IMG/VR virus record: IMGVR_UViG_3300013121_000030
Coordinates: 96,001-160,000 of that record
Strand: one strand, 5' to 3'
Source of the DNA: an uncultured virus (IMG/VR IMGVR_UViG_3300013121_000030)
Lineage: Duplodnaviria > Heunggongvirae > Uroviricota > Caudoviricetes
Length of the DNA: 64,000 nucleotides
The notes under the pieces are model-generated. The model worked only from the letters and a program-made list of their open reading frames with translations. It was not told where the DNA came from and ran no database searches. Positions 626 to 56,575 of the stretch are shown in pieces (position 1 is the first letter of the stretch; each line of letters starts with the position of its first letter). The translations under genes and the position numbers were made by a program.

Positions 626-710
626 GCTCAGGTGATTGGAATTGGTAGACATGCCCGACTCAAAATCGGGTGCCCTTACGGGCGTGAGGGTTCGACTCCC
701 TTCCTGAGCA
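626..710 (+). tRNA. tRNA-Leu(CAA)
   Basis: GCTCAGG acceptor pairs with CCTGAGC; anticodon arm CCCGA-CTCAAAA-TCGGG; long variable arm; GTTCGACTCC T-arm; CCA not encoded. Confidence 0.93.
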
Positions 711-807
711 AGGAAAATAAGGAGACCCGAGTATAATCCTTGGGTCAATGAAAACCGCAAAGGCCCATAATGGGCCGCCGCAAACTTCAACAACAGGACA
801 ACAACTC

Positions 808-1476
808 GTGACCACCGAATTCGCCACCGATCTCGACACCATGGTTTCCACCATCGAAAACGACACCATTGATGAGCGCGTTTCTCGCCTCGTGGAGAGA
901 ATCTCCGCAAGCGCGGACGCACTCAAAGTCAACCAGTTCTTCGCCACAATCTCTGCTACAGGGACGATTGGTGAGACTTCGCGCGTCTACCTCACCAAGG
1001 TAGGCGAGATGTCCCTCTTGGACTTCTGCACGGCGATTGTTCGTGCGGCGGGCCAGGAGGATGAGGCTGAGCCGGAGGTTCCGGTTCAGGTTGAGGCCTC
1101 AAAGGCGGCCAAGAGCAAGAAGGAGCCGAAGGCCCCCAAGGCTCCCAAGGCTGAAAAGGAGCCGAAGGCTCCCAAGGCTGGGAAGGCCCCCAAGGCTGAG
1201 GTCAAGGAAGAGGAGGAGGAGGAGGAGGCCCCCGCCAAGGCTCCGAAGACTCCGCCCAAGGCCAAGAAGACCTCTGCCGAGGAGGATCTCACGGAGGCAC
1301 GTGAGAGCATTGTCGGTCTTTTGGAGAAGGATTCCAATGGTCTTCCGGCTTCAAAGATCGTGGAGTCGTTGGGGCTCCATCGGAATGTCGTCCAGGCCAT
1401 CTTGGACGCTCTCATCGCGGATGGGAAGGCTGTCCGTGAGGGGCAAGCTCGCGGCACCAAGTACAAGCTCATTTGA
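808..1476 (+). CDS. histone H1-like (KAPK repeat) DNA-binding protein with C-terminal winged HTH
   Basis: KEPKAPKAPKA repeats, poly-E tract, C-terminal ...ASKIVESLGLHRNVVQAILDALIADGKAVREGQARGTKY; probable GTG start at 808 after AGGA (ORF track 748). Confidence 0.7.
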   Translation: MTTEFATDLDTMVSTIENDTIDERVSRLVERISASADALKVNQFFATISATGTIGETSRVYLTKVGEMSLLDFCTAIVRAAGQEDEAEPEVPVQVEASKAAKSKKEPKAPKAPKAEKEPKAPKAGKAPKAEVKEEEEEEEAPAKAPKTPPKAKKTSAEEDLTEARESIVGLLEKDSNGLPASKIVESLGLHRNVVQAILDALIADGKAVREGQARGTKYKLI

Positions 1477-1478
1477 GC

Positions 1479-1521
1479 TTATGACTCCAGGGTCCCTCTT
1501 TCTGGGACCCTGGAGTCATAA
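1479..1521. terminator. perfect 18-bp hairpin
   Basis: TTATGACTCCAGGGTCCC-TCTTTCT-GGGACCCTGGAGTCATAA directly after the stop codon. Confidence 0.75.
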
Positions 1522-1576
1522 CATCGTTCCCTAACTCATATATTGCCGCCTCCCAATTCAATGGGAGGACACGGCA

Positions 1577-1915
1577 ATGAGTTTGTTGGAGGGAAAAAGG
1601 CTTCTTCAGCATGCGGGGGGACACTTGGGTTCCTCTGTTGTTTTTGCAGCCATAATGTTTGGGGTGGTGTACTTCGCTTACGAGTTTCAAGCGAAGTACA
1701 ACGAGAGGATGCGCGCATCCTTGGCCAGGGTGTCAAGTGATGTTGTGGTTCTCCAAAGCCGTGCAGACCTTGCTGAGCGGAACTTGGCCTCTCTTTCAAT
1801 GGAGATTGCCTCACTCCAATCGCGGGTGGAGTTTTTGACAAAAAAACCTTTGGTTCCCCCAACACCTCCATCAAAGACCTCTAGGACCGGAAAGACAAAG
1901 AAACTACCCCCGTGA
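1577..1915 (+). CDS. single-TM coiled-coil protein (i-spanin-like architecture)
   Basis: GGAGG SD; TM VVFAAIMFGVVYFAY followed by a coiled coil and a Pro/Lys tail. Confidence 0.6.
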   Translation: MSLLEGKRLLQHAGGHLGSSVVFAAIMFGVVYFAYEFQAKYNERMRASLARVSSDVVVLQSRADLAERNLASLSMEIASLQSRVEFLTKKPLVPPTPPSKTSRTGKTKKLPP

Positions 1916-2418
1916 CAAAAAGCTACACTCGCTTCCTCCAGTTCCAGGTGCGAATCCGAATTGCAATCAGCCACTGGCTGAAAGATCCTGGTTCTTCTCT
2001 CCTCGTTGGTGGATGGATCGGCGGACAATCCCGATGCCCGTTGTCACTCCACGAAAAATGGCCCCATCTCGCGTCACGGGCCACAAAAGACTCGGAGGAT
2101 TTTATGGAAGACACTGCTCGACTCTGGGGGATCCTTCTGGAGGAAGCAGAAGCATTCCTGGACGGAATCGAAAATGGTCCTCAAGCTCCTCCAGAGTTAG
2201 GGTCTTTCTATGAATTCGGATTGGAGCTGAGGAGCACTCTAAAGTGGACAGAAGACCCGCATCTCCATGAGTTTGACGAAATTCGGGTATGTGAGGACGA
2301 TGCCCGCCATCGACAAAACACTCTTCATCAGGAACGTCAACGGGGTTCTGATGTGCGAGGCTGGAATCCTCGCACACCGTCACTTCGGATACAGGCAGCT
2401 CAGCCAACTCTCCCGTAA
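1912..2418 (+). CDS. hypothetical protein
   Basis: GTGA overlap with the upstream stop; C-terminus overlaps the next gene. Confidence 0.5.
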   Translation: MTKSYTRFLQFQVRIRIAISHWLKDPGSSLLVGGWIGGQSRCPLSLHEKWPHLASRATKDSEDFMEDTARLWGILLEEAEAFLDGIENGPQAPPELGSFYEFGLELRSTLKWTEDPHLHEFDEIRVCEDDARHRQNTLHQERQRGSDVRGWNPRTPSLRIQAAQPTLP

Positions 2419-2902
2419 TATTCGGACTCGGTGGTCCAACTTCCTCATTGAAGGGTTGGACTTCCGTGTGTCCTCAAGTCCAGAGGACCACCTTCTTTAC
2501 AGGAACCTGTGTTCTCAGCTGCACATTCGACCCTCGATTGCGCTGGGGAAGAAAATCTTGTGGGTGACCTATGACGGCATGGAGAAGATCGTAGACTCCA
2601 GGACTACCCCTGTGACTCCTCCTCTTCCCTTGTCCTCACCGCACACCACACACACATCACCTCACGCTCCACAGAAGTTCCCTGTTGTAGCCTTGAGCCA
2701 TTTTGAGGCACTCACGCTGATTCAAAACTCGGCAGCCAAGCGTGGAGATTGGGACATGGTGAGGTGGACTGAGAAGGTGGCCCTGCAAGCGCTTGGAATC
2801 GAAGTGGCCTCGGAAACTGCCGTGCTGTGTCAGGCACCCGAGGATCCTCCACGTGTGGATTCCTTTGGGGATCTCATTGACAACATCCGGGGGGTCCTGT
2901 GA
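2300..2902 (+). CDS. antirepressor-like DNA-binding protein (ORF6N/BRO-like N-terminus)
   Basis: ...FLIEGLDF...ILWVTYDGMEKIV pattern resembles phage antirepressor N-domains; GGGTAT motif and GAGG upstream of ATG 2300. Confidence 0.45.
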   Translation: MPAIDKTLFIRNVNGVLMCEAGILAHRHFGYRQLSQLSRNIRTRWSNFLIEGLDFRVSSSPEDHLLYRNLCSQLHIRPSIALGKKILWVTYDGMEKIVDSRTTPVTPPLPLSSPHTTHTSPHAPQKFPVVALSHFEALTLIQNSAAKRGDWDMVRWTEKVALQALGIEVASETAVLCQAPEDPPRVDSFGDLIDNIRGVL

Positions 2903-3618
2903 TCTTTGGGTCCCCAACAATTGGGGCGGCGCTTCTGTCTCCTGGCGTGAACCTTTATCTCCCCACTGGGGTGATTTTGTGGCTCTCCGTGGAAGAGGAC
3001 GAATTGGATTGGGAGGTGGTCGACGCCGGAGACGAAGCCATCGGAGAACCTCCACCATGGCTGGACATGGGGGAGATCATGGATCACATGCGCTACTCCA
3101 TGGTTGGAGGCCCAGTCATGGATTGGGCCCTCCACAAAGGTTTGTCTCCGCAACAGAGATTTGCGGTTTACTGCAGCAAACCCCACATCTCCCGATGTTC
3201 ATGGGAGTATGAGGAATACGATGTTGAATACGACATCTTTGAGGTAAAAAGAGAGCCCCCATCCCTCTCCGCACGAGAATTCGAGTGCGCTATCTCAGAA
3301 CTTTTTGAGAGGAAACGCCTCCACAAAAAGAGGATTAGGGAGTTGAAAAAGGCTCAGTGGGACAACGACCAAAGGATGAGGTTGAGGTGGTCTTTCGGGG
3401 GCGGTTATTTCGAGTCCTCAGTGGAACCTTGGTGTTCTGTGGAACTCATCTCGACATTGGCGGACCCGGATCTGCCTGAATATCACGCTCCAAACATCCT
3501 TGCATGGGGCCGATCGGACTCCAACAGTCGGGAAGATGCCTTCTTGGCACTGAAGACCATGGCGGATAGCTTCCGGCCAGACCTGGATCTAACCAAAATC
3601 CCCCAGCGATACTATTGA
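2899..3618 (+). CDS. hypothetical protein
   Basis: 239-aa ORF, GTGA-coupled to upstream gene. Confidence 0.65.
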   Translation: MIFGSPTIGAALLSPGVNLYLPTGVILWLSVEEDELDWEVVDAGDEAIGEPPPWLDMGEIMDHMRYSMVGGPVMDWALHKGLSPQQRFAVYCSKPHISRCSWEYEEYDVEYDIFEVKREPPSLSAREFECAISELFERKRLHKKRIRELKKAQWDNDQRMRLRWSFGGGYFESSVEPWCSVELISTLADPDLPEYHAPNILAWGRSDSNSREDAFLALKTMADSFRPDLDLTKIPQRYY

Positions 3619-3637
3619 GGTCGGTAATTGTTACTGC

Positions 3638-3880
3638 GTGGAGAACGACGACTTTCTCGAATATAACGGAACTGTGGTGTCCATGGCTCATGGGGATTTT
3701 CTGGTGGAAGTTCCAGAACTAGGAACTACGATTCGGGCCAAGCTCGCTGGGAGCCTCCGAAAGAACAAGATCCGTGTAATCGTCGCGGATGAAGTCAAGG
3801 TAGCGGTATCCCCCTACGATTTTGGGCGGGGGAGGATCGTGTATCGGTTGTCAAAGGGGGGACTCCCTCCCCGTCGATGA
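3638..3880 (+). CDS. infA: translation initiation factor IF-1
   Basis: GTVV...FLVE...IRAKLAGSLRKNKIRVIVADEVKVAVSPYDFGRGRIVYR matches the IF-1 consensus. Confidence 0.93.
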   Translation: MENDDFLEYNGTVVSMAHGDFLVEVPELGTTIRAKLAGSLRKNKIRVIVADEVKVAVSPYDFGRGRIVYRLSKGGLPPRR

Positions 3881-3907
3881 CAGACCTGGGAGAGAAGGGG
3901 AAGGGGA

Positions 3908-4099
3908 ATGGTGGAGACAACACAACATCCAGTGGACGCGAAGCCTTTGAAGCAGCCTCTCACACAGTGGGAGAAGGTACACAAGTTGGCTGAGGACACG
4001 AAAAGGTCTTTGCGCGAGTGCTGGAAAGCATTCAAGTCTGTGAATGGAGACTCTCTGAAGGCCAAGGATCTCCTGCGAAGGGAAGAAAATGCCCACTGA
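3908..4099 (+). CDS. EF-Ts N-terminal (UBA-like) domain protein
   Basis: VHKLAEDTKRSLRECWKAFKSVNGDSLKAKDLLR parallels EF-Ts N-terminal VKxLRxxTGxxxxxCKKALxxxxGDxxxAxxxLR. Confidence 0.65.
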   Translation: MVETTQHPVDAKPLKQPLTQWEKVHKLAEDTKRSLRECWKAFKSVNGDSLKAKDLLRREENAH

Positions 4100-4319
4100 G
4101 ATTGACCACGAGTACACCGAAGAAATCGTCTGTCGCTACTGTGGGGAGGTCCACGAGGATTCCTGGGACTTTGCGGACAGCGACTCGGATTTCGAGTGCT
4201 GGAGTTGCCTGAAGAGGTTTTCATTCACGCGCCACACGATCGTGGCCTACTCTTCGTGGAAGAATGAGCCTCAGAAGGGGCACCGTGCGGGGGAAGCAGA
4301 TTCTCCGTCTGAGGAGTAG
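4089..4319 (+). CDS. small zinc-ribbon phage protein
   Basis: CRYC...CWSC pairs. Confidence 0.65.
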   Translation: MPTEIDHEYTEEIVCRYCGEVHEDSWDFADSDSDFECWSCLKRFSFTRHTIVAYSSWKNEPQKGHRAGEADSPSEE

Positions 4320-4792
4320 GTCGTGATGACCGTGATGATGTGTTCCTGAGTCCTCTGGAACACCACCACGACCCCCAGGCGCGGATCTTCCCAAACCGTC
4401 TTGGCTCCCGCCTGGAAAGCTTCCCATCGTGGGGATCGGCCCCGTGATCGCTCCTTGTTGAGGGTGCGAAAGAAGAGGTCCAGGGAAGCTCGGATCTGAG
4501 GGACCGTTATTCCCCTCAGGTCCATGCGATACTGGGCGTGGGGGGTCAGGAACAGATTGAACTTCCAGGGGCCGCGCTCACGCTCATGGTCGTAGACTTT
4601 GTTGGCGGCAGCATTGGGCAGGTCTTCTCCGTTCTCCACAAGAGAGACGAGAGTGTCTTCAAGACGGCCGTCAGGAAGTTCATCGCGGATCCTTCGGACA
4701 ACATGACAGGTCCCCCCAGGATATCTTGCACCCAACCCAGGAGGATTCCGCACGAATGCGCTTCTGCGCAAGAATGCACTCTTGCGCAGCAA
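4271..4792 (-). CDS. DUF4258-like putative RNase/toxin-fold protein
   Basis: TPHAQYRMDLRGI...VVVVF...TVITTY motif; start codon uncertain. Confidence 0.5.
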   Translation of the reverse strand: MLRKSAFLRRSAFVRNPPGLGARYPGGTCHVVRRIRDELPDGRLEDTLVSLVENGEDLPNAAANKVYDHERERGPWKFNLFLTPHAQYRMDLRGITVPQIRASLDLFFRTLNKERSRGRSPRWEAFQAGAKTVWEDPRLGVVVVFQRTQEHIITVITTYSSDGESASPARCPF

Positions 4793-4816
4793 GGATAGCC
4801 TGTTGGAGCCTTCTAC

Positions 4817-5134
4817 TCACACCCATCCCTCCCACCGAGCCTGGAAGGTCTGGAGGTCCTCCTCCAGCTTCGTCAGGAAGGAATTTGCCTCCTCCCCATG
4901 GAGGTGGGAGTAGGTATGGAGGTCCTCATCCACGGCCATGCGAATGATCTTGGCTGCGTGGAGGGGGAGCTCGCGTAGACGATGGAACATCTCCACCGCG
5001 CCGTGGACAGCGCGGCCAGAACCGGGAATCCGCGAGTCCTCCGCGACACCCCGAGCGTTCAGAAACGCTCCCCCACGGGGATAGAGGTCCATGATGGACA
5101 GAGCGGACTGGAAGATGGTTGGGGAGTACGACAT
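4817..5134 (-). CDS. hypothetical protein (predicted leaderless)
   Basis: ATG 6 nt after the GTGCTACACT promoter element. Confidence 0.65.
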   Translation of the reverse strand: MSYSPTIFQSALSIMDLYPRGGAFLNARGVAEDSRIPGSGRAVHGAVEMFHRLRELPLHAAKIIRMAVDEDLHTYSHLHGEEANSFLTKLEEDLQTFQARWEGWV

Positions 5135-5140
5135 GAGAAG

Positions 5141-5169
5141 AGTGTAGCACCCCTCTCGCCGTTTTACAT
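5141..5169 (-). promoter_or_regulatory. class A phage promoter ATGTAA-N13-GTGCTACACT
   Basis: One of 8 copies with an identical 13-nt spacer. Confidence 0.75.
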
Positions 5170-5268
5170 GGGGTTGGTGAGGTGTGCGGCCTTGAACCTC
5201 TTACACCAATGCCTCCCCACGGCAAATGGGGATCGTGGGAGTTGAACACCCTTCCTCCTCACCAACAG

Positions 5269-5341
5269 TGCTCCAGGCAGGGATCGAACCTGCGACGCCC
5301 TCCTCTTCAGGGAGGCGCTCTGCCAACTGAGCTACCGGAGC
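5269..5341 (-). tRNA. tRNA-Phe(GAA)
   Basis: GCTCCGGTAGCTCAGTTGGCAGAGCG-CCTCC-CTGAAGA-GGAGG...GGTTCGATCCC...TGGAGCA. Confidence 0.93.
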
Positions 5342-5391
5342 TTGAGAGGTTCAGCCGGTAGCCTCTGGAGCTACCGGCTACCGAAAGCCGG

Positions 5392-5464
5392 GGTGGATGA
5401 CGGGTCTCGAACCCGCACCTCGGGAGTCACAATCCCGCACGCTGCCAGTTGCGCCACATCCACC
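5392..5464 (-). tRNA. tRNA-His(GTG)
   Basis: Encoded G-1 pairing with C73; anticodon arm CGGGA-TTGTGAC-TCCCG; GGTTCGAGACC T-arm. Confidence 0.9.
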
Positions 5465-5580
5465 GTAAGGATGGAAGGCTCCCGCCGAGGGGAGCGCAAT
5501 ATGGAGCTGGAGCAGAGACATGACGGGAACCTTCTTTCACACGTTGGTATTGGCTGTCAAGGGGGGTGGATGGAATTTTG

Positions 5581-5654
5581 TGATCGTGGCAGGAATCGAA
5601 CCTGCGGCCTCAAGATTCGGAATCTTGCGCTCTATCCAACTGAGCTACACGATC
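5581..5654 (-). tRNA. tRNA-Arg(CCG)
   Basis: GATCGTGTAGCTCAGTTGGATAGAGCG-CAAGA-TTCCGAA-TCTTG...GGTTCGATTCC...CACGATCA. Confidence 0.93.
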
Positions 5655-6411
5655 GAATGGACTGGATCTGTGTCGAACAAGTCTCCAGATACCCAGGAAC
5701 AATGTCCACGAACTTGGACTTGGGGAGCCCCATGAGAATGGGGACGAATGAGTGGGTAGCGATGATGACCTGTTTGGAGTCAGGGATTTGACTGAGGACC
5801 CTCCAAAAATCAATCTGGTTGGGGATGTCTCGGCAGTTCTCAGGCTCGTCGAGCAGGACCGTGAATCCGCGGGTCTTCTCCGCTGAGAGAACATGGCATT
5901 CTCTCCAGTTAGCATGCTCCTTTTGGAGGTATTCCGGGACCTTGCCCCCAGGGAACCTCACATTTATCTTTTCCCATTTCGCAAGAGCCGTAAACATGCG
6001 GGAGACTTTGGAATTGGTTTGTTCCCCCGCCGAAGACTTCCTCTGGAAAATGGAGCGAATTCCCTCATCAAGGAAGTCGTCCTCAAAAGCTACCCCTTTT
6101 CCAAAGAGGCCTACTTCCTCCAGTGAGTCCACATAGCCTGTTTTCGCGCCATCATGGTGGACACGGAGTCCTCGTGGAGTCTCAAAGTACCTGAGGCTCT
6201 CTCTGGTGAGAGAAGGGACCATTCCCTGCTCACACATGAGCACACGGGCCAGATTTTTGAGGATCGAGCTTTTTCCGGACCCATTGGGTCCCCAAAGGAT
6301 GTTGAGTCCTGGCTGGAAGACAAACTCTTGTCTCCCTTGAAGACACGCGATCTTCTCCCAAAAATCCACACACGTCGTATGTGGATCGGTGATTTCGAGT
6401 TTGGAAATCAT
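5632..6411 (-). CDS. ABC/AAA-type ATPase
   Basis: Walker A GPNGSGKS, signature SAGE, Walker B VLLDEPE, H-loop IATHS; TAG stop lies inside tRNA-Arg(CCG). Confidence 0.85.
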   Translation of the reverse strand: MISKLEITDPHTTCVDFWEKIACLQGRQEFVFQPGLNILWGPNGSGKSSILKNLARVLMCEQGMVPSLTRESLRYFETPRGLRVHHDGAKTGYVDSLEEVGLFGKGVAFEDDFLDEGIRSIFQRKSSAGEQTNSKVSRMFTALAKWEKINVRFPGGKVPEYLQKEHANWRECHVLSAEKTRGFTVLLDEPENCRDIPNQIDFWRVLSQIPDSKQVIIATHSFVPILMGLPKSKFVDIVPGYLETCSTQIQSIRSCSSVG

Positions 6412-6415
6412 GGAG

Positions 6416-6489
6416 TGCCCCTAGCAGGACTCGAACCTGCGACCTACGGTTTAGGAAACCGTCGCTCTATCCACCTGAGCTATAGGAGC
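6416..6489 (-). tRNA. tRNA-Arg(CCT)
   Basis: GCTCCTATAGCTCAGGTGGATAGAGCG-ACGGT-TTCCTAA-ACCGT...GGTTCGAGTCC...TAGGGGCA. Confidence 0.93.
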
Positions 6490-6591
6490 AGATGCTCTGG
6501 CAACCCTGTTCTGTATTCCCCACTACAGTCTTCCCTTGGGACTTGACTGAGGAACAGGGCCCTTACCTCGGGTTGGACCCCCCGGCCAGAG

Positions 6592-6837
6592 CTAAATTCG
6601 GGATGGGATGTTGTTGACCGCGTGGGTGATTTCCCCAAAGGGGAAGAAGAGCTTCACCAGAAAGCCTGGCTTGTTGTTCAAACGCCAATCAACGAATTTG
6701 ATGCCCTCAAACTCACCTTCGAGGTCGATGTTTCGACCAGTGAAGACAATCCCCACGACTGTCCCCACTTCTTTCTCTCCCAAAACAGGGACATGTGGAC
6801 GACCGATGTGTCGGCGAGCACGAGTGAGCTTGGACAT
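6592..6837 (-). CDS. hypothetical protein
   Basis: 81-aa ORF with AGGA SD downstream of a class A promoter. Confidence 0.6.
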   Translation of the reverse strand: MSKLTRARRHIGRPHVPVLGEKEVGTVVGIVFTGRNIDLEGEFEGIKFVDWRLNNKPGFLVKLFFPFGEITHAVNNIPSRI

Positions 6838-6852
6838 GGGGTTGGTTCCTGG

Positions 6853-6881
6853 AGGATAGCACGTGGAGTCGGAACTTACAC
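6853..6881 (-). promoter_or_regulatory. class A promoter GTGTAA-N13-GTGCTATCCT
   Basis: Near-identical to the copy at 7270-7298. Confidence 0.75.
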
Positions 6882-6924
6882 AAGTTTCTTCGTGGTCTCA
6901 GGGCGCTTGAAGCGCGGTAATGTC

Positions 6925-7014
6925 TGGCGGAGGAGGTGGGATTTGAACCCACGGGGGACTTTCATCCCCGTCCGATTTCAAGTCGGGTGCCTTAAACCGC
7001 TCGGCCACTCCTCC
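6925..7014 (-). tRNA. tRNA-Ser(TGA)
   Basis: GGAGGAGTGGCCGAGCGGTTTAAGGCA, anticodon loop CTTGAAA, long variable arm, encoded CCA. Confidence 0.93.
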
Positions 7015-7019
7015 AGTCT

Positions 7020-7093
7020 TGGACAAGGTGGGACTTGAACCCACGACCCGCCGGTTATGAGCCGGCTGCTCTAACCGACTGAGCTACTCGTCC
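7020..7093 (-). tRNA. tRNA with CAT anticodon, most like tRNA-Ile2 (lysidine); elongator Met not excluded
   Basis: GGACGAGTAGCTCAGTCGGTTAGAGCA-GCCGG-CTCATAA-CCGGC; no initiator features. Confidence 0.85.
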
Positions 7094-7263
7094 GCGCGCA
7101 CTCTACCCCGACAAGCACCCCGCTTGTCGGCCAGCTTCCGATCCTTGTGTCGGCCCCCCCGCTGGAGGAGACGACCATTCTTGGTCTGCCCCTTCATGTG
7201 GGCGTCAGCCCACACCGCGTGAGCGAGGGCGCGCAAGGGATTCGTTTGGTTCTTCTGGGGCAT
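7084..7263 (-). CDS. 59-aa basic protein (not in ORF track); stop codon inside the tRNA(CAT)
   Basis: MPQKNQTNPLRALAHAVWADAHMKGQTKNGRLLQRGGRHKDRKLADKRGACRGRVRADE*; ATG 6 nt after a class A promoter. Confidence 0.65.
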   Translation of the reverse strand: MPQKNQTNPLRALAHAVWADAHMKGQTKNGRLLQRGGRHKDRKLADKRGACRGRVRADE

Positions 7264-7269
7264 GGAAGG

Positions 7270-7339
7270 AGTGTAGCACGTCGAGTCCGAACTTACACTA
7301 ACTTTTTAGTGTGTAACTCTGGGGTTTGGGTGCTACCGT
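7270..7339. promoter_or_regulatory. back-to-back divergent class A promoters
   Basis: Minus: GTGTAA(7298-7293)-N13-GTGCTACACT(7279-7270); plus: GTGTAA(7311-7316)-N13-GTGCTACCGT(7330-7339). Confidence 0.75.
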
Positions 7340-7345
7340 ATCCCC

Positions 7346-7711
7346 ATGGGAACTGCTCCTCAGAATCTTCGCTACTCTGCGTTCTACCAGAACCTCCCCA
7401 TCGAAGGGAAATTTACGATCTCCGAGGCCCAAGAGCTGGCCAAGAAGAACAATCTTCCGCTCCGTCTTTGGAGAGACGGAACCCACATCTTCACTGTGGC
7501 TCCCCACGGGATGGCGCCGATGGTGCCCAATCTACTCCCGTGCGAATTCCGCGCGTGGGCCGAGTTTATCGTAGCTCACACAAGCTCCGCGGAACATCTG
7601 CTCCCTCTTGCGGTGGATGCGCTGCTCGCCGCCATGGACGCCAACGACACCGAAGCGATCTCTTCTCTCACCGCCACCCTCAAGATGGCACGGTCGATTC
7701 CGAAGCGGTAG
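7346..7711 (+). CDS. hypothetical protein (predicted leaderless)
   Basis: ATG 6 nt after the promoter -10 element. Confidence 0.65.
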   Translation: MGTAPQNLRYSAFYQNLPIEGKFTISEAQELAKKNNLPLRLWRDGTHIFTVAPHGMAPMVPNLLPCEFRAWAEFIVAHTSSAEHLLPLAVDALLAAMDANDTEAISSLTATLKMARSIPKR

Positions 7712-7737
7712 TTATCTTGTGTCGGAGTGGCCCACAC

Positions 7738-7977
7738 GTGGACAGAGACTTCTTTGTCCTTCTGGGCTCGGCTGGAGATTGTGTAACCATATTACATGTT
7801 CTCCAAGGACTCTCCGAACTCTGCTTCTCAGCAGGCAATTTCCCGCTCCTCCTCGTGTGCGGAAAGGCGGAGTTTACCTCCCTCACCCTGGATCAATTTC
7901 AGGACTCCTTCAAAATCATCCTGAGCTTCCCTTCCACATCCAAGAAAATCCTCTTCCACCTTGAAGGGTCTATCTGA
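7738..7977 (+). CDS. hypothetical protein
   Basis: C-terminal part of ORF 7147..7977 from GTG 7738; fills the gap between genes. Confidence 0.35.
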   Translation: MDRDFFVLLGSAGDCVTILHVLQGLSELCFSAGNFPLLLVCGKAEFTSLTLDQFQDSFKIILSFPSTSKKILFHLEGSI

Positions 7978-7980
7978 GCA

Positions 7981-8340
7981 ATGAGACGGAAAAAGATGAA
8001 GCGCCTTCGCAGGAAGGCAATGATGAGGAGCTACCGCGCGGCACTTCGAGCCCAGCCGTTGTCGATCTCCAAGATCGAGCGTGTCACGCGCGGAATCGGT
8101 CGCACCCTCTCCAGGGACTTCTCCCACGAGCATGCGTGGTATGCGACAAACCGCGATTCCTGGGCCACGTTCGACCTTGAAACGATGCGTGAGGAAGTCC
8201 GCCGCAAGCTCGACTCCGAAACGGGAATCTCACCCATGGATTGGGTCCGAATGGACCTGCAATACTACTCCGATCGGTGGAACGCTGGGCGCTATCGGCG
8301 CCTTCTTCTCCAGATCGAAGAGGTCAAGTCGCGGGTGTAA
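7981..8340 (+). CDS. hypothetical basic protein
   Basis: 119-aa ORF, GC3-rich; its TAA is part of the next promoter's TGTAA box. Confidence 0.6.
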   Translation: MRRKKMKRLRRKAMMRSYRAALRAQPLSISKIERVTRGIGRTLSRDFSHEHAWYATNRDSWATFDLETMREEVRRKLDSETGISPMDWVRMDLQYYSDRWNAGRYRRLLLQIEEVKSRV

Positions 8341-8363
8341 CTCAGCCGTCCGCGTGCTACACT
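8335..8363 (+). promoter_or_regulatory. class A promoter GTGTAA-N13-GTGCTACACT
   Basis: ATG of the nadD-like gene 6 nt downstream. Confidence 0.75.
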
Positions 8364-8369
8364 GGAGTC

Positions 8370-8903
8370 ATGCGGATTGTTGTTTACGGGGGGTCTTTCA
8401 ACCCCTTCTGCAAGAACCACTTGGATGTCGTCTCCTGGGCGACAACTCAGGGGGATGAGGTGTGGGTGATTCCCAGTTACGCCCACCCTGAGAAGTCCTT
8501 GATGATCGATTTCGAGCATCGGCTTGTCATGGCGCGGCTCGCGGTGGGTTCGGAGCTGTGGCCTGTGCCTGTGTGGGTGTCCGACATCGAAAGGACCCTC
8601 TTCCAGGAGGGGATGTCCAAGATCTTCACCTACCATCTGCTCCGCCGCCTGGCGGCCATGCATCCTGAGAACACATTCGTGTTCGCCATTGGGCCGGACA
8701 TTGATCCCAGCAAGTGGGAGCTGGGGCCTGAAGCAATGGCGGAGTTTGAGTTCATCCGGGTCCCCGACATGGGGACCCATGCGACCCAAGTGCGGGAGTG
8801 GATTCGCACTGGGGATTCCCAGTGGAGAAATTTCGTGCCCACCCAGGTGCAGCGCTACATCACGTGGAAGTCGCTCTACGGGGATTTCTCCCACGAGATT
8901 TGA
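8370..8903 (+). CDS. nadD: nicotinate/nicotinamide-nucleotide adenylyltransferase (NadD-like)
   Basis: MRIVVYGGSFNP..NH, VWVIP..HPEK, HRLVMARLA, F.F.IGPD, AT.VR, VP..V..YI....LY; HxGH appears as CKNH. Confidence 0.85.
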   Translation: MRIVVYGGSFNPFCKNHLDVVSWATTQGDEVWVIPSYAHPEKSLMIDFEHRLVMARLAVGSELWPVPVWVSDIERTLFQEGMSKIFTYHLLRRLAAMHPENTFVFAIGPDIDPSKWELGPEAMAEFEFIRVPDMGTHATQVREWIRTGDSQWRNFVPTQVQRYITWKSLYGDFSHEI

Positions 8904-8913
8904 GGGGGGTCTC

Positions 8914-9324
8914 ATGGTCCGTCAGGATGTGGAGGTGTTGTGGAGCGACCTGGAAAACTGCGGGGGTTGCATCAAGGACTTGGCCACTCGTTTGGTCGAC
9001 ACCGAAAATGGCCTCTTGTCGGCATACCTTTCGTGTCGGGAGAATCCCGACACGAAGTATCTCCGAGCGGCTTACGCTTGCGGGTTGAGGTATTCTCAGG
9101 TGGCCTCTTTCCTTGAAGAAAGAGTTGAGGAAAGAGCAACGCGCTTTGCCTATCTTTATGGAACACTGTGTGCGCAGAGGTCCCTGGACTCCGCGTGGAG
9201 GATGAGAGCTTTTGTTGCCGAAACTGAGATGACACTGTACAGGTCCATCGCACAAACCCACATCCGTGGGATTCGTGTTCTGACTGAGAAACTCCGGGTT
9301 TGTGTGGATAAGCAATCGGCATGA
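8914..9324 (+). CDS. hypothetical protein
   Basis: GAGG SD before ATG 8914. Confidence 0.55.
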   Translation: MVRQDVEVLWSDLENCGGCIKDLATRLVDTENGLLSAYLSCRENPDTKYLRAAYACGLRYSQVASFLEERVEERATRFAYLYGTLCAQRSLDSAWRMRAFVAETEMTLYRSIAQTHIRGIRVLTEKLRVCVDKQSA

Positions 9325-9347
9325 ACTCCGCGGAGTATTCTCCATCC

Positions 9348-9704
9348 ATGATGGACACCAAAATCAGAATCTTCTACTCAGAGTCCTTTGGGGACTTTGG
9401 GCGAGTCGACCTCTCCTTTGTCTCAACTTTGGGAGAGTTTCTGGCTCTTCTTCTCATGGGGGACGTTCCTGCTTCTCCTCAAGTCCTCAACCTTTTGGGG
9501 ATCCAATGTTCCCCAGAACTTCGAGCACGGTGGAAGTGTTCCCTCTCAGTAGGGACGCTTCGCTATGAGGAAGTCCCCAAGGATTCAACGCTGGAGACGA
9601 TCCCATGGGAGGTTTCGGAGCGTGTGGAGCGGCTGGTCAACAATTCGCTCAGCTTTGGTGCGGATATCCTTCGGCACCTCCATAAACGGAACTGGGACAT
9701 TTGA
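9348..9704 (+). CDS. hypothetical protein
   Basis: ORF 9321..9704; GAGTAT element 9 nt before ATG 9348. Confidence 0.55.
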   Translation: MMDTKIRIFYSESFGDFGRVDLSFVSTLGEFLALLLMGDVPASPQVLNLLGIQCSPELRARWKCSLSVGTLRYEEVPKDSTLETIPWEVSERVERLVNNSLSFGADILRHLHKRNWDI

Positions 9705-9732
9705 GGGGTATTCGCCCTTACAAAGGAATCCA

Positions 9733-11436: not shown

Positions 11437-11534
11437 TGTCACCAAAACTCCAGAAGAAAATTTGGTGGTGATGGGTACATAAGCGGAGCAAGTGTGGTAG
11501 AAACCCACACTCACACACCATCGAAGAGCAAGCT

Positions 11535-46277: not shown

Positions 46278-46306
46278 GGGAGAGCCACCATGGGTATGAG
46301 AGACCC

Positions 46307-47734
46307 ATGGGGTTGGATACCAAGTACAGGCCGAGAAGCTACGGGGATGTCCTAGGCCAGGAGGGGACAATCAAAATTTGCCGTGGGATTGTTGAGCGCG
46401 GACAGCGATTTCAACAATCCTATGTTTTTTATGGTCCGTGGGGGTCTGGCAAGACTACCTTGGCGAGGATCTTCGCTCGGGCGCTGCTGTGCTCCTCCCC
46501 TCAAAGGGGGGAACCCTGCGATCAATGTCCCTCATGCATATCGATTTTGAGGGGGTCGAGTGAGACCTTGGTGGAAATTGATGCTGCTACCTCCTCGGGG
46601 AAGGAGGATATCCGAAAGATCCGTGAAGATGCAGAATACGGGGCTTTTGGGGGATCCAGAAAGATCTACCTCATTGACGAGAGCCATGAGCTGAGCCGTC
46701 AAGCGATGGATGCTCTTCTCAAGCCTCTGGAAGACACATTCTTGGGATCGTTGGATAAGCGGCTCGTGTGCATTTTCTGCACTACGGAGCCCGCTAAGAT
46801 GAGATCTGCGATTATGTCAAGGTGTGCCCCTGCCTTCCGGATTCACCCCAATTCTCCCAAGCAGATCCGCGAGCGCCTGGAGAAGATTTGTGCGGCAGAG
46901 GGAATATCTGCGGATCCCGCGGCTCTGGAACTGATCGCGGAGGTCAAAGAGTCTCATATTCGTGACTGCCTCAAGGCAGTCGAAGCTCTTGCAACAAGAG
47001 GAGATATTGGGCTGGAGGGAGTCCGAGAATATCTCCATTTGGGTGCCTCAGAGTGGGTTTTGGAGGCGTTGGGGAAGGTAGGGGTTGACTGTACAGGGAT
47101 TTCTGCGCCCCTGAAGAAGTTGGAGGAAACTACATCTTCTTCAGTTGCGTATGAGAAGTTTGCGTCCTTGAGTCTGTTGGCATATTTGGTGTCCACGAAC
47201 AAGCAAACCCCAGTTCCGACATTTTTGAGTAGGACAAGGCTCCAAGAAATTGGAGATCGGTTGGGGGTCTTCCTGGTTAAGTGTGCTCGGACGTTCTCGG
47301 AACGTCCCTATCGGTCCACTTATACGATGCTGGTCTGCGATTTGTTGTACTTGGATGCCATGCAACGCGGACTGTGGGTGGAAGGCGGGTCCCCGAAGTT
47401 CCATGTGTCTCTTCCACCGGCACAGGGTGCCACAGAGACCACATCTCCGATGGATGTTCCCAACACCCCATTTGTGACAGAGACAGGGGTCAGCATCGAC
47501 CCCATCGCACGGAAGAGACCCACCGGGCACAAAGCCACTCCCGTGGAGGAATCGAAGGCGATGAAGGGCACTGAGATCAGCGCGGAATCGTTTTCGGTGG
47601 TATTGGTGGAGAAGGTTTTAGGAGCCACCAACCAGGAACAAAAGAGTGGATCGAAGGGACACACACTCATGGGTGACTCTCGAACTGACGCAAATCGGGA
47701 TCAACCTCATCGAGGAGAAGCGTCTGGAGAGTGA
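46307..47734 (+). CDS. dnaX: DNA polymerase III gamma/tau clamp loader ATPase
   Basis: KYRPRSY.DVLGQ, GPWGSGKTTLAR, PCDQCPSC, EIDAA, IDESH, ALLK.LE, SRC. Confidence 0.92.
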   Translation: MGLDTKYRPRSYGDVLGQEGTIKICRGIVERGQRFQQSYVFYGPWGSGKTTLARIFARALLCSSPQRGEPCDQCPSCISILRGSSETLVEIDAATSSGKEDIRKIREDAEYGAFGGSRKIYLIDESHELSRQAMDALLKPLEDTFLGSLDKRLVCIFCTTEPAKMRSAIMSRCAPAFRIHPNSPKQIRERLEKICAAEGISADPAALELIAEVKESHIRDCLKAVEALATRGDIGLEGVREYLHLGASEWVLEALGKVGVDCTGISAPLKKLEETTSSSVAYEKFASLSLLAYLVSTNKQTPVPTFLSRTRLQEIGDRLGVFLVKCARTFSERPYRSTYTMLVCDLLYLDAMQRGLWVEGGSPKFHVSLPPAQGATETTSPMDVPNTPFVTETGVSIDPIARKRPTGHKATPVEESKAMKGTEISAESFSVVLVEKVLGATNQEQKSGSKGHTLMGDSRTDANRDQPHRGEASGE

Positions 47735-48209
47735 GATTCGTCGTCTTCTGAACGTGGATGCGTCGTGGCCGATTTTTGTTCCGGTTCGATTGTACGAAAA
47801 GAATGGACGAACCATAGCCCTCCATCTCATGGAGGGCTATGTGTTTGTAGCTGCTGGACTGGATGAGATCCGCTATTTTAGGTTGGAGAGGACTAAAATT
47901 GTGGAGAGAGTCCTCTCCAGCAAGGACCCCAACTCTGGGGTCAAAGTCCTTAAGGTCCTCCCCGATTCCGAGATCCAAATTTTACGTTCCCAGTTGTGCG
48001 AGCGAGTAACGGAGGATCTCGCAGAGGGAACCCCTGTGGTGATCACACAGGGAGTGTATGCGAGGTTGGAGGGGAGAGTCGTAGATTCACTTGGGGAAGA
48101 CCCCAATAATATCTTGGTTCTCTTCAACTTCAGGTCGATGAGTCGGATCTCGAAGATACCCAGGGAATTTGTTGAAGTGGTATCAGGGGAGTCACAGCAT
48201 GTGGTATGA
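47646..48209 (+). CDS. NusG/RfaH-family transcription elongation/antitermination factor
   Basis: NGN-like IFVP...LMEGYVFV and KOW GTPVVITQGVYARLEGRVV. Confidence 0.8.
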   Translation: MDRRDTHSWVTLELTQIGINLIEEKRLESEIRRLLNVDASWPIFVPVRLYEKNGRTIALHLMEGYVFVAAGLDEIRYFRLERTKIVERVLSSKDPNSGVKVLKVLPDSEIQILRSQLCERVTEDLAEGTPVVITQGVYARLEGRVVDSLGEDPNNILVLFNFRSMSRISKIPREFVEVVSGESQHVV

Positions 48210-49083
48210 CTCCCAATTTACAAGTTTGGCGGATATAGCTTCGAGAATTCCGGACCATTCTGCTTTGGAGCAGATGGAGGCCCTGATTCAGGGGTTGGGG
48301 GATGATCCATCGGAGTCGGCGCAGAAGATGCTGGAGAGGGTACGGGAGTCAATCTCACAGCTCCCAGAGCGGGAGGCCGACTTCGTTGAGCTGTACTATT
48401 TTTTGTTCAAGACTCAGACAGAGATCGCCTACCTCTTTCGAGTTAGCCAGCCGACCGTTTGTTATCGTCTCCAAAGGGCAGCCAGGAGGATCCGATTTCT
48501 GTTGTCCCTGCCGACACTCTCGGACGATGATTTGCACAAAATGGGTGAGGATCTGAACAAGGTCTTGAAGGACCCCATAAACGACCCGAAAATTCTCATT
48601 CGGATGTACCACACCTCTTGTCAAAGTGTGGTAGCCAAGGAGATGGGGGTGTCCCAAGGGAAGATCCGCCATCGTTTGATGCGGTCGATTGATATTCTGA
48701 GTAGGCTCAAAAACAGGTCCGAGGACTTCAAAAAATACTATGACCTTTTTGTTCTGATTGTTGAAGCCTCGAACATCCGAAGAGAGGTTCAGAGGCCCTC
48801 CTCTGGGTCCAAGATGAGGTACATCCTGGATTGTGACCCTGATCCTAATATCTCCTCCTTTGCTGTCTTTGAAGATGAGGATCTTCTTCTAAGTGAAGTT
48901 GGGAAGGCTTCGGGAGAAGTGAGCCTTGTCTGGAGGGAGGTTCAGAAGTTATTGGTGTGGGCAGAAGTGGACATGGTTTGGGGTGATATTCAGGTTCAAA
49001 TCTCTGCGAGGGAACAATCAGAAGGGTCCTTTGAGGCGGACTTCATTGCCCGAGAAGTCCTTGGGGTTGTGTTAGGGGCTTGA
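48199..49083 (+). CDS. protein with tandem sigma70 region-4-like HTH domains
   Basis: LPEREADFVELYY...TQTEIAYLFRVSQPTVCYRLQRA and a second CQSVVAKEMGVSQGKIRHRLMR. Confidence 0.75.
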   Translation: MWYDSQFTSLADIASRIPDHSALEQMEALIQGLGDDPSESAQKMLERVRESISQLPEREADFVELYYFLFKTQTEIAYLFRVSQPTVCYRLQRAARRIRFLLSLPTLSDDDLHKMGEDLNKVLKDPINDPKILIRMYHTSCQSVVAKEMGVSQGKIRHRLMRSIDILSRLKNRSEDFKKYYDLFVLIVEASNIRREVQRPSSGSKMRYILDCDPDPNISSFAVFEDEDLLLSEVGKASGEVSLVWREVQKLLVWAEVDMVWGDIQVQISAREQSEGSFEADFIAREVLGVVLGA

Positions 49084-54678: not shown

Positions 54679-54710
54679 TCATCCATTCCACGGATGGAGA
54701 TGGAGGACAC

Positions 54711-55187
54711 ATGAAGAAGAAAGCCGCAGTAGTTGGTCCTTGTGATACTGAGAAGGCACCGGAGGTGATCCAGTCTCTCCAGTGGCTCCTTGCTCTTCTC
54801 CGGGCGATGTTCACGAACTATCAGGAATCCCACTGGATTTTCAGAGGGTACGACAATCACCTCCTCTTTCAGCGCCTCTATGAGGCTGTGGATGGAGAGA
54901 TTGATGCACTTGGTGAGAAGATGGTGGGCTACTGTGGCGATGCAGTGGTCAACCCGGTCCTTGACCGGCAGATGCAAATGTATTGGACGTCTCGGTGGAC
55001 AAAGGTGGAGTGCCCTTTCCATCGCGGGCTTGAGGCCGAGGGAGACTTCCAAAATGTTGTCTCGGACCTCTACGACCAACTGGATGAGGCTGGGATCATG
55101 CTCATGGGGATGGATGACATGCTCATGAGTATGAGCAACACCCACGACACCCACCAATACCTCCTCAAGAGGGTGGCTGGACAATAA
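54711..55187 (+). CDS. Dps/ferritin-like protein
   Basis: YQESHW...HLLFQRLYE...EIDALGEK; C-terminal H....Y.L. Confidence 0.8.
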   Translation: MKKKAAVVGPCDTEKAPEVIQSLQWLLALLRAMFTNYQESHWIFRGYDNHLLFQRLYEAVDGEIDALGEKMVGYCGDAVVNPVLDRQMQMYWTSRWTKVECPFHRGLEAEGDFQNVVSDLYDQLDEAGIMLMGMDDMLMSMSNTHDTHQYLLKRVAGQ

Positions 55188-55750
55188 TGCCCTCAACGAC
55201 TCAGCCTCCATATCGATTGATTGCTCCGGGCTTTGAGAGATCTGGTGAGCCCGACCTGGGCTACAATCGGATCATCACTCGTTATGGAATGCAGGAGCAG
55301 TTGATTCAGTTTTTGGGTATCTCCCCAGCTCTCGGGTTCCAGGCAGCTAACCAAGTTACGAGTTCTTTTTTTGCCCTGACTGACCCGCAGGCTGCGGTAG
55401 GTCCCTCGGCGGTGGTGACGGTCTCCAACACCACCTTTGTGGGACAGTCCGCGAGTCTCTTTGTGGGCCCCTACGAGCTGGTTTCAGAGATCGATTTTGT
55501 GATCGCGGGCGGAGCCGCTGCAATCGCCGCCTCGATCGCCACTGCAGTTTCTGCGCTACCGGGGTTCACAGGAACGCCTGTGGGTGCCGCAGTCACGGTG
55601 ACCAGGAAGGGAGGGATCGCCCCAGACGAGCTGAGGTTCTCTGCTTCCTACCGTGGGGGGAATGTGAACTTTACGTTCACATGGCCCACCAATGTGGGGT
55701 ACCTGGGCTACACCACGAACATCGTGCAGCCCATGCAGCCCTTCATGTAA
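55187..55750 (+). CDS. putative structural protein
   Basis: DF.I.G....AASIATAVSALPGF...GA.VTVT pattern like the insert in 49900..51492. Confidence 0.55.
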   Translation: MPSTTQPPYRLIAPGFERSGEPDLGYNRIITRYGMQEQLIQFLGISPALGFQAANQVTSSFFALTDPQAAVGPSAVVTVSNTTFVGQSASLFVGPYELVSEIDFVIAGGAAAIAASIATAVSALPGFTGTPVGAAVTVTRKGGIAPDELRFSASYRGGNVNFTFTWPTNVGYLGYTTNIVQPMQPFM

Positions 55751-55773
55751 GTTCGCTCGTGGCGTGCTACACT
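55745..55773 (+). promoter_or_regulatory. class A promoter ATGTAA-N13-GTGCTACACT
   Basis: ATG 7 nt downstream; TGTAA includes the upstream stop codon. Confidence 0.75.
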
Positions 55774-55780
55774 CGGGGTC

Positions 55781-56110
55781 ATGGTTACCCCCATCACCCC
55801 CCAAGAACTGAAGGCAAGGCGTTCGCAAATCCCTGACTTCGTGATCGACGTCTTCAATGACCTCATTGCGGAGAATTTCGACGGCAGGAGTGCGGTTATC
55901 CTTCAGGAAGATGTTGTGAAGCGGCTGTTGCCTCTTGTTCAGGTCCATGAGGGCCAATCGATATCCCCCAACGCTCGTCGAGAGATGGTGTTCAAGAAGG
56001 GGTGGCTGAATGTGGAGGCCCTGTTTGAGAAGCAGGGATGGAAGGTGGCTTACTACAAGCCCGACTATAGAGAGGATGGGTATCCCAGCTTCACCTTCAC
56101 GGCACCGTAG
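55781..56110 (+). CDS. phage hypothetical protein (predicted leaderless)
   Basis: PITP...IPDFVI..FN.LI...WL..E..F...GWKV.Y.KP pattern. Confidence 0.7.
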   Translation: MVTPITPQELKARRSQIPDFVIDVFNDLIAENFDGRSAVILQEDVVKRLLPLVQVHEGQSISPNARREMVFKKGWLNVEALFEKQGWKVAYYKPDYREDGYPSFTFTAP

Positions 56111-56113
56111 TCC

Positions 56114-56575
56114 ATGATCCTCACCTACCCAGACCCCATCCTGGGGAAAAAGATGCCGACGCGAACCCCTCAGGACTTGGGGGGTCTCTCGTCGCGCATG
56201 CTCTTGGAAATGTTCAGGTCAGGAGGGGTGGGCCTTGCGGCTCCTCAAGTTGGGGAGGAGTACCGTCTCTTCGTGGCAGATCCAGAAGTCGTGGGCCGGG
56301 GGGTGTTCTTCAATCCCGTTCTGATCGAGCAGTCTCCCGCGGGATTGATTGGGTCCGAAGGATGTCTCTCACTGCCCGGGGTTTGTCTGGAGGTGAAGCG
56401 CCCAGAGTGGATTGTCGTCCGCTTCATGGACGACAAGGGAACTGAGTCTGAAGAGAGATTCCACGGGTTCCCAGCCAGGGTGATTCTCCATGAGATGGAC
56501 CATCTGGATGGGGTCCTCATCTTGGATCGGGTCCACGCACTCAAGAGGCAGCGAGTTCTGCGCAAGCTTCGCTAG
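56114..56575 (+). CDS. def: peptide deformylase
   Basis: GVGLAAPQ, EGCLS, HEMDHL.G motifs. Confidence 0.95.
   Translation: MILTYPDPILGKKMPTRTPQDLGGLSSRMLLEMFRSGGVGLAAPQVGEEYRLFVADPEVVGRGVFFNPVLIEQSPAGLIGSEGCLSLPGVCLEVKRPEWIVVRFMDDKGTESEERFHGFPARVILHEMDHLDGVLILDRVHALKRQRVLRKLR

Follow-up and report, generated by a model that had tools for sequence, protein, structure and literature searches.

A large phage whose transcripts largely start at the start codon has been described in the Thermus thermophilus phage phiYS40 (Sevostyanova et al. 2007, as related in PMC3594737 and PMC12340547): its middle and late mRNAs are leaderless, its middle and late promoters are dominated by the -10 element and lack a -35 element, IF2 is reported to go up and IF3 down in the host (as related in PMC3594737), and a tilt of the initiation factors towards leaderless mRNAs was proposed for this phage. 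Here we analysed a stretch of 64,000 nucleotides (nt), the window hereafter, i.e. bases 96001-160000 of the single 234,244-base-pair (bp) contig of the IMG/VR virus record IMGVR_UViG_3300013121_000030 (55.5% GC, wastewater origin). It combines two classes of putative promoters placed directly before start codons with genes for initiation factor IF-1 (infA), for a short protein resembling the N-terminal domain of EF-Ts, for a peptide deformylase (def) and for seven tRNAs. An initial annotation of the window had proposed that these parts form one programme, by which the phage shifts initiation towards its own leaderless mRNAs. The parts and the leaderless geometry hold, and phiYS40 as related in PMC3594737 offers a precedent, but we found no direct support for a coupling into one programme, and the parts belong to separate transcription units, of two promoter classes, that spread over 56 kb.

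The phage differs from phiYS40, as the latter is portrayed in these sources, in two respects. phiYS40 is reported to alter IF2 and IF3 of its host, whereas the present phage, known here from its genes alone, carries IF-1 and an initiator-type tRNA and neither IF2 nor IF3; and it has an early-looking promoter class with a strongly conserved, unusual -35 element (GTGTAAC). A second known system is the translation gene set of huge phages, which commonly carry IF1, IF3, peptide deformylase (PDF) and tRNAs (Al-Shayeb et al. 2020, PMC7162821). The likeness lies in IF1, PDF and a large tRNA array in a phage above 200 kb, a set that was read as redirection of host translation (IF-1 is also found in Lak megaphages and Bacteroides phages); the difference is that canonical Shine-Dalgarno (SD) sequences are reported for most huge phages, with 0 occurrences of the word 'leaderless' in that paper, whereas the present genome is SD-poor. 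-10 elements adjoining open reading frames (ORFs) in Deinococcus-Thermus (PMC12340547) and leaderless genes in Actinobacteria and Deinococcus-Thermus (PMC3160421) are similar in that a TAnnnT-type -10 just upstream of ATG would be both the promoter and the cause of the missing 5' untranslated region; those are cellular genomes, whereas we deal with a phage with two sharply defined motif classes. Leaderless translation itself is IF2-dependent and IF3-antagonised, needs a 5' AUG and is strongly enhanced by formylmethionyl-tRNA (fMet-tRNA) (PMC4611024, PMC9031893), which is the factor reported to boost it most (PMC9031893). In E. coli, IF1 stimulates leaderless and 70S-scanning initiation and is required for canonical initiation (PMC9031893).

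The present case is most readily seen as a variant of two known systems, a phiYS40-type leaderless programme and the huge-phage translation gene set. The explanation that we lean towards, at slightly better than even, is a leaderless, SD-poor phage genome with a general huge-phage translation supply set that incidentally suits leaderless initiation. Transcription would begin at, or a few nt from, the A of ATG at both promoter classes, and the head gene of many operons would be read from a leaderless mRNA; downstream genes, mostly without SD, would rely on coupling or re-initiation, and 42 tRNAs (including one of initiator type), a canonical IF-1 and a deformylase would supplement the translation supply of the host. 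The initiator tRNA and IF-1 genes probably benefit the phage's own messages, because initiation on 70S ribosomes and on leaderless mRNAs is known to gain from an added supply of initiator tRNA and IF-1. The translation genes look like general capacity boosters, not like a dedicated switch, and any effect of IF-1 or the EF-Ts-like protein on phage messages is one that we infer.

Two classes of putative start-proximal promoters

Class A has the consensus GTGTAAC-N12-GTGCTACACT with invariant spacing and is found in 33 copies (relaxed form) genome-wide; the window has four exact copies of the 10-mer GTGCTACACT. Its geometry is of the sigma-70 type: the -35 hexamer TGTAAC is separated by 17 bp from the -10 hexamer TACACT, which carries a TG extension. 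In 18 of the 33 copies (0.9 expected, p 5e-20), the -10 is followed at a distance of 5-8 nt (mode 6) by the ATG of an ORF that has 40 or more amino acids (aa). Class B is a bare GGGTAT with no conserved -35, and 21 of its 64 copies in the genome have such an ORF 7-11 nt downstream (2.2 expected, p 2e-15). Control hexamers put through the same genome-wide test were at expectation for ATG proximity. Within the window, five full class A composites end in ATG (0 expected from shuffles), and GGGTAT-N7-11-ATG was found seven times (1.1 expected; 0 of 100 shuffles reached seven). The two promoter classes that had been said to place the start codon near the predicted +1 were thereby recovered, with gaps of 5-8 nt for class A and 7-11 nt for class B and with 10-20-fold enrichment. 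The class A sites of the window are as follows.

5132-5168, minus strand: class A ending in ATG 5134 (putatively leaderless gene 4817-5134)
7261-7348, both strands: divergent class A pair with ATG 7263 (minus) and ATG 7346 (plus), the -35 words 14 nt apart
8336-8372, plus strand: class A ending in ATG 8370 (gene 8370-8903)
55746-55783, plus strand: class A ending in ATG 55781 (putatively leaderless 109-aa gene 55781-56110)
6838-6862, minus strand: class A -10 core GTGCTATCCT followed by a 15-nt SD-less leader and ATG 6837 (gene 6592-6837); this copy is not leaderless

Other class A copies have SD-bearing leaders or are found upstream of tRNA genes, in the latter case at a promoter-like distance (genome positions 207880 and 224648). 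We discarded a class A-like core at 16311-16320 on the plus strand (GTGCTACTCT, where TGTAT resembles a -35), because a TTG found 6 nt further on opens a frame of only 12 codons and no usable ORF starts within 8 nt. Its product may be a small RNA or the leadered mRNA of the gene 16550-17047. The class B sites of the window are listed below.

2285-2302, plus strand: class B, 9-nt spacing, ATG 2300; probable head of the infA operon
15100-15115, minus strand: GGGTAT-N7-ATG (gene 14212-15102)
21430-21445, minus strand: GGGTAT-N7-ATG (676-aa VWA-domain protein, 19402-21432)
22132-22148, minus strand: GGGTAT-N8-ATG (gene 21448-22134)
32472-32488, plus strand: GGGTAT-N8-ATG before a RecD2-type helicase gene (32486-34732)
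46292-46309, plus strand: GGGTAT-N9-ATG before a clamp-loader, dnaX-like gene (46307-47734)
63587-63606, plus strand: GGGTAT-N11-ATG (gene from 63604, running off the window)

About 40 genes in the genome are promoter-adjacent in this sense. ATG is used by 32 of 34 promoter-adjacent called genes and by 127 of the 225 other calls, and this near-exclusive preference is in keeping with the need of leaderless mRNAs for an AUG (PMC4611024). The SD core is scarcely enriched (65/259 starts vs 44/259 internal controls). The spacing of motif to ATG is an observation, and promoter function, transcription start points and the timing of the classes are predictions from it and from gene content. Replication and recombination genes (recD2, dnaX) are among the class B heads, and the genes under class A would suggest that this class is early.

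Generic sigma-70 and terminator scans of positions 1-9000 stayed at chance level except for the promoter of a tRNA-Leu gene (see below). As a separate observation, a 1752-aa ORF without Pfam match (56572-61830, minus strand) has a TAGAGT -10-like hexamer 6 nt before its ATG, which may represent a third kind of start-proximal promoter.

Two neighbouring genes are candidates for reprogramming transcription.

47646-49083, plus strand: NusG/LoaP-like gene overlapping the gene of a 304-aa protein that has sigma-70 region 4 only (48169-49083); both from profile matches

The best subfamily matches of the region-4-only protein are to ECF (extracytoplasmic function) and SigB/F/G region 4, and no region 2 (Sigma70_r2) was found anywhere in the genome. 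This protein could read the -35 word GTGTAAC. Class B resembles the T4 late and middle promoters, which are -35-less and rely on a phage factor, and the present phage has a region-4-only protein and a NusG paralogue; homologues of T4 gp55, gp33, MotA and AsiA did not turn up, and no search was aimed at these. GGGTAT is nearer the -10 of SigB/SigF-type sigma factors, and a -35 matching these sigmas is absent at class B sites.

IF-1, deformylase and tRNAs

The translation genes of the window, apart from the gene that follows infA, are given here with the evidence for each.

3638-3880, plus strand: infA, IF-1, 80 aa, GTG start (Pfam, NCBIfam, alignment)
56114-56575, plus strand: def, peptide deformylase (Pfam, TIGR00079, motifs)
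626-710, plus strand: tRNA-Leu(CAA) (ARAGORN)
586-613, plus strand: near-consensus sigma-70-like promoter TTGACG-16-TATGAT directly before tRNA-Leu (promoter scan)
5268-7093, minus strand: six tRNAs (Phe, His, Arg-CCG, Arg-CCT, Ser-UGA, Met-CAU), interleaved with class A units (ARAGORN)

The infA product matches both Pfam eIF-1a (PF01176; 48.9 bits, cut-off 30.2) and NCBIfam TIGR00008 (62.3 bits, just over the equivalog cut-off of 61.15), the latter over profile positions 2-69 of 69, so that the presence of infA stands on full-length matches above both curated cut-offs. When aligned to two bacterial and four phage-type IF-1 sequences, it retains the blocks of the single S1/OB domain, i.e. G.V, RKNxIR, SPYD (for (S/T)PYD) and GRIxYR. 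Its oddities are the GTG start, an 8-residue C-terminal extension and 'VADEV' where the others have 'GDxV'. By these sequence features, we take it to be a full-length canonical IF-1.

The operon of infA most likely begins not at a class A promoter but at the class B promoter at 2285 (ATG 2300); there is no other class A or B site between 2300 and 3638, and infA is the third gene in the order 2300-2902, 2899-3618, infA, ORF 3908, ORF 4089. Exact short RNA contigs of the phage were found over positions 1-20000 in three wastewater metatranscriptome runs from two studies, among them two over the infA region (3626-3897 and 3728-3961); these are assembled contigs of depth 2-5, from which neither 5' ends nor strand can be read, and some of them may stem from carried-over DNA. 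The closest IF-1 sequences, 43-54% identical, are found on other phage-like contigs, and the gene 3' of infA is different on each. Among cultured and curated phages, 34 records of varied hosts contain IF-1, mostly Lak/Prevotella and Bacteroides phages plus a Sinorhizobium jumbo phage.

The deformylase matches Pfam PF01327 (129.1 bits, cut-off 22.8) and TIGR00079 (111.7 bits, cut-off 103.95), and the catalytic and metal-binding motifs are all present (GVGLAAPQVG for GxGxAAxQ, EGCLS, and HEMDH for HExxH), from which the enzyme looks active. Its placement under a class A promoter was borne out: the promoter lies at 55746-55773, the ATG at 55781, and def is the second cistron of this putatively leaderless operon, starting 3 nt past the preceding stop with no SD. 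A cyanophage peptide deformylase (Frank et al. 2013, as cited in PMC7162821) is alike in being phage-borne with intact metal-binding and catalytic motifs. It differs from ours, going by that citation, in that the present gene is the second cistron of a leaderless operon in a phage that is not a cyanophage, and the proposal of photosystem protein turnover is inapplicable here. We rejected the def matches as a clue to the host, as the best ones (38-47% identity) are spread over many phyla.

All seven tRNAs reported for the window were recovered by ARAGORN at their places. The promoter of tRNA-Leu is unlike both phage promoter classes. With its G1:C72 pair, the tRNA-Met of the window (7020-7093) does not qualify as an initiator. 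Across the whole genome, 42 tRNA genes were counted. The majority form an array some 50 kb past the end of the window, and this array includes an initiator-type tRNA-Met at genome 210138-210213. Bacterial initiator tRNAs are marked by a mismatch of position 1 with position 72 (C1xA72), by A11:U24 and by G:C at all three positions of 29-31/39-41; the ARAGORN sequence of this tRNA has C1xA72 and A11:U24, and in its anticodon stem G:C is found at two of the three positions and A29:U41 at the other.

The EF-Ts-N-like ORF downstream of infA

The infA gene is followed by two short ORFs.

3908-4099, plus strand: 63-aa ORFan (ORF 3908), residues 20-59 resembling the EF-Ts N-terminal (TS-N/UBA-like) domain (TIGR00116, hhalign, shuffles, Atlas)
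4089-4319, plus strand: 76-aa CxxC...CxxC zinc-ribbon-like ORF overlapping the end of ORF 3908 (PHROG 14328 and 6504, function unassigned in both)

ORF 3908 starts 27 nt after infA in the same operon and is preceded by a purine-rich, SD-like stretch. In a search of 18,950 NCBIfam models, TIGR00116 (EF-Ts) was the sole family match (E 3e-5; residues 20-59 to profile positions 5-44). We compared the ORF with EF-Ts references taken from five bacterial genomes, four of which yielded clean N-terminal domains. Probabilities from hhalign against EF-Ts N-domains were 66.8% (4 sequences) and 55.6% (35 sequences), with 34-35% identity over 37-38 ungapped columns, and Smith-Waterman scores against EF-Ts were above those of all 2000 composition-preserving shuffles (z 6-9.5). 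The EF-Ts positions kept include V..L.E.T, (D/E)C.KA, the NGD turn, A..LR and the flanking helices. Neighbours of its ESM Atlas model are EF-Ts-N fragments, small 'EF-Ts family' proteins, UBA, NAC/HYPK UBA domains and DUF4342 (TM 0.59-0.71 over 40-49 residues).

Other searches gave a different picture. No match to ORF 3908 was obtained from Pfam (E up to 10), PHROG or PDB sequences; the Pfam models EF-Ts_N (PF25025) and UBA (PF00627) do not match it, and a six-frame search of the genome returned nothing for EF-Ts_N. A word-indexed search of 5.8 billion clustered proteins returned the ORF itself and nothing else, tblastn against the phage collection gave nothing, and database-wide phmmer did not detect the EF-Ts likeness. 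HMMER against 1.84 billion representatives returned, beside the ORF itself, a repeat protein (P0008) that we consider spurious, as is a 29-aa motif inside a UDG-like (uracil-DNA glycosylase-like) gene (L091) from the IMG/VR scan. When we searched by profile for short proteins that consist of a lone TS-N domain, partial EF-Ts sequences crowded out everything else. In the most conserved EF-Ts block, TGAGMM(D/E)CKKAL, ORF 3908 has TKRSLRECWKAF, which retains the T, E/C and KA positions alone; TGAGMM is replaced by TKRSLR, although G17, A18, M20 and M21 are invariant or nearly so in the 35 EF-Ts N-domains. AlphaFold2 (no alignment) predicts two helices (20-46 and 50-62) and not three, with a pLDDT (predicted local distance difference test) of 75. 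Foldseek of this model against PDB gave nothing, and VIA-align (wide) gave generic helical hairpins alone (Z up to 3.9). A predicted complex with the G domain of E. coli EF-Tu (score 0.02, mark 0.34) weighs neither way on binding.

ORF 3908 as a complete EF-Ts was ruled out: it has 63 aa, the core/dimerisation domain is absent from the protein, and PF00889 has no match genome-wide. Compared to the EF-Ts N-domain (TIGR00116 positions 1-50; PF25025), it is alike in the ungapped alignment, the NGD turn and the flanking helices, and different in being a stand-alone protein in a genome with no core domain, in the absence of GAGMM and in the silence of the Pfam model. The earlier description of an EF-Ts-N-like domain right after infA is therefore fair as regards the resemblance (TIGR00116 E-value, hhalign, shuffles) and unproven beyond it, the GAGMM motif being absent. 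On balance, ORF 3908 probably carries a true TS-N/UBA-like domain. Its pairing with infA is not conserved in IF-1-bearing relatives.

Relatives with and without IF-1

No DNA-level relative was found. We looked at IF-1-bearing phages and at the nearest record of the phage collection. A phage-like Logan contig (SRR17165180_631419; L002) encodes an IF-1 that is 52% identical, and its IF-1 operon starts with GGGTATAATgcccATG. Its other genes include those of a peptidyl-tRNA hydrolase of the PTH2 type and of a 174-aa protein that resembles release factors and has PCRF and RF-1 domains. A 182-kb phage, IMGVR_UViG_3300028920_000027 (G006; loci L094-L103), has 59% GC, 46 tRNAs and an IF-1 with 43% identity. 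Classes A and B are not present in G006; GTGTA(A), often with TG before it, lies 7-11 nt ahead of ATG at 7/36 and 21/203 sites, far above expectation (for GTGTA-N8-11-ATG, 21/203 sites vs 4.4 expected). The same GTGTA(A) word forms the class A -35 of the present genome, 29-30 nt before ATG. Among the records of the phage collection, the nearest is LR745208, from an uncultured phage of 485 kb and with no annotation, whose clamp loader shares 52% protein identity; no IF-1 was found in it, and by eye it has GTGTAA-N8-start examples that resemble start-proximal motifs. Using the clamp-loader gene as IMG/VR query retrieved no close relatives.

As to the suggested co-occurrence of infA with leaderless mRNAs, L002 and G006 have IF-1 and start-proximal promoter motifs, but LR745208 shows similar motifs by eye without IF-1. 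Taken together, IF-1 carriage is neither necessary for nor specific to start-proximal promoters in this sample, which is small and phylogenetically clumped. It is not specific to leaderless phages because Prevotella, Bacteroides and Sinorhizobium phages also carry IF-1. Nor is IF-1 an obvious discriminator between mRNA classes, because IF1 also stimulates 70S scanning and is required canonically (PMC9031893); the factors known to set leaderless mRNAs apart are IF2, IF3 and the supply of fMet-tRNA (PMC9031893, PMC4611024).

Competing explanations

We consider it unlikely that the phage performs a coordinated takeover, in which IF-1, perhaps with the EF-Ts-N-like protein, the initiator tRNA and deformylase, selectively shifts ribosomes to 70S-type initiation on leaderless phage mRNAs over leadered host ones. 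Such a takeover would build on a leaderless architecture that is real by the genome-wide and window statistics, on the phiYS40 precedent for an initiation-factor shift (as related in PMC3594737), on a leaderless translation that is fMet-tRNA-responsive and IF1-stimulated (PMC9031893) in a phage with IF-1 and an initiator-type tRNA, and on the start-proximal motifs of the two IF-1-bearing relatives. Yet IF1 stimulates canonical and 70S-scanning initiation too (PMC9031893), the discriminators IF2 and IF3 are not phage-encoded, and the phage IF-1 is canonical in sequence apart from its C-terminal tail and 'VADEV'. Moreover, infA begins with GTG and lies inside a class B operon, so that leaderless class A genes would have to do without it during translation if class A comes first; the parts are unclustered, the gene after infA is not conserved in relatives, and the distribution of IF-1 among phages, together with the similar motifs seen by eye in LR745208 without it, points the same way. 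Quite unlikely, in our view, is a joint channelling of host ribosomes to phage messages by IF-1, initiator tRNA, deformylase and a stand-alone EF-Ts N-domain together with leaderless AUGs at nearly all operons, where the EF-Ts N-domain protein might hold EF-Tu or the ribosome in a state favouring 70S initiation; if true, this would be the first phage initiation-factor set shown to discriminate mRNA classes. The role assigned to ORF 3908 faces a serious alternative, somewhat short of even: the ORF may be unrelated to translation control, i.e. a UBA-like adaptor (DUF4342, NAC/HYPK-type), a decoy for defence or toxin systems acting on EF-Tu/EF-Ts, or a chance likeness. The lack of homologues in any database searched, the change of TGAGMM to TKRSLR with silent Pfam EF-Ts_N and UBA models, the two-helix AlphaFold model of middling confidence with no PDB fold match, the NAC, HYPK and DUF4342 neighbours besides EF-Ts, and the different genes after infA in relatives all fit this, set against a sole library-wide match to the N-terminal 40 positions of EF-Ts, ungapped identity with key EF-Ts-N positions retained, and a position shortly after infA in the same operon.

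Very unlikely is a leadered layout, with transcription starting further upstream (e.g. from GTGTAA) and GTGCTACACT or GGGTAT acting as an RNA-level or regulatory element in a short leader. GTGTA(A) is itself start-proximal in G006 and LR745208 (8-11 nt before starts, vs 29-30 nt here) and RNA contigs bridge some promoters, but class A has textbook sigma-70 geometry (17 bp, TG extension, A2 and T6 of the -10 kept, ATG 6-7 nt after the -10), the same element stands at a promoter-like distance from tRNA genes, and near-exclusive ATG suits 5'-terminal start codons. The preferred explanation, leaderless operon heads plus a general translation supply set, has several points against it. Of the class A copies, 12-15 are leadered or feed tRNAs, and the 7-11 nt spacing of class B permits leaders of 0-4 nt and not strictly zero. 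Class A may need a phage factor, because its -35 GTGTAAC differs from the canonical TTGACG before tRNA-Leu. The RNA contigs 7135-7487 and 5007-5344 span promoters, which implies read-through RNA or DNA carry-over there, and the idea that the layout matches host practice is an assumption.

We know of no phage IF-1 with a demonstrated role. The present genome is a clean test case for why huge phages carry initiation factors, with about 40 genes whose putative promoters abut ATG, little use of SD, a canonical IF-1 and an initiator-type tRNA. If IF-1 or its EF-Ts-like neighbour shifts the ratio of leaderless to leadered translation, transcription architecture would be linked to translational takeover, which has so far been hinted at for phiYS40 alone. 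Even if there is no such link, both promoter consensuses can serve annotation and help to trace the RNA polymerase or sigma factor of the host.

Other features of the genome and the window

The phage is a jumbo phage, of which the window is the middle stretch; completeness of the record was judged to be about 90%. Genes typical of jumbo phages in the window include a class II ribonucleotide reductase with inteins, the RecD2-type helicase, RecA, the clamp loader, the NusG paralogue and the sigma-region-4-only protein. IF2, IF3, fmt, translational GTPases (EF-Tu, EF-G), the EF-Ts core and sigma region 2 were searched for in the whole genome and none was found. The ribonucleotide reductase (26880-32411, plus strand; 1843 aa, B12-dependent) contains intein splicing domains and a LAGLIDADG endonuclease domain and has a C-terminal TSCPD domain. 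Perfect GC-rich palindromes on GAGGCCCCTCA/TGAGGGGCCTC are found at 11720-11760 and 32405-32455, at the ends of convergent or tandem units, and are likely bidirectional terminators.

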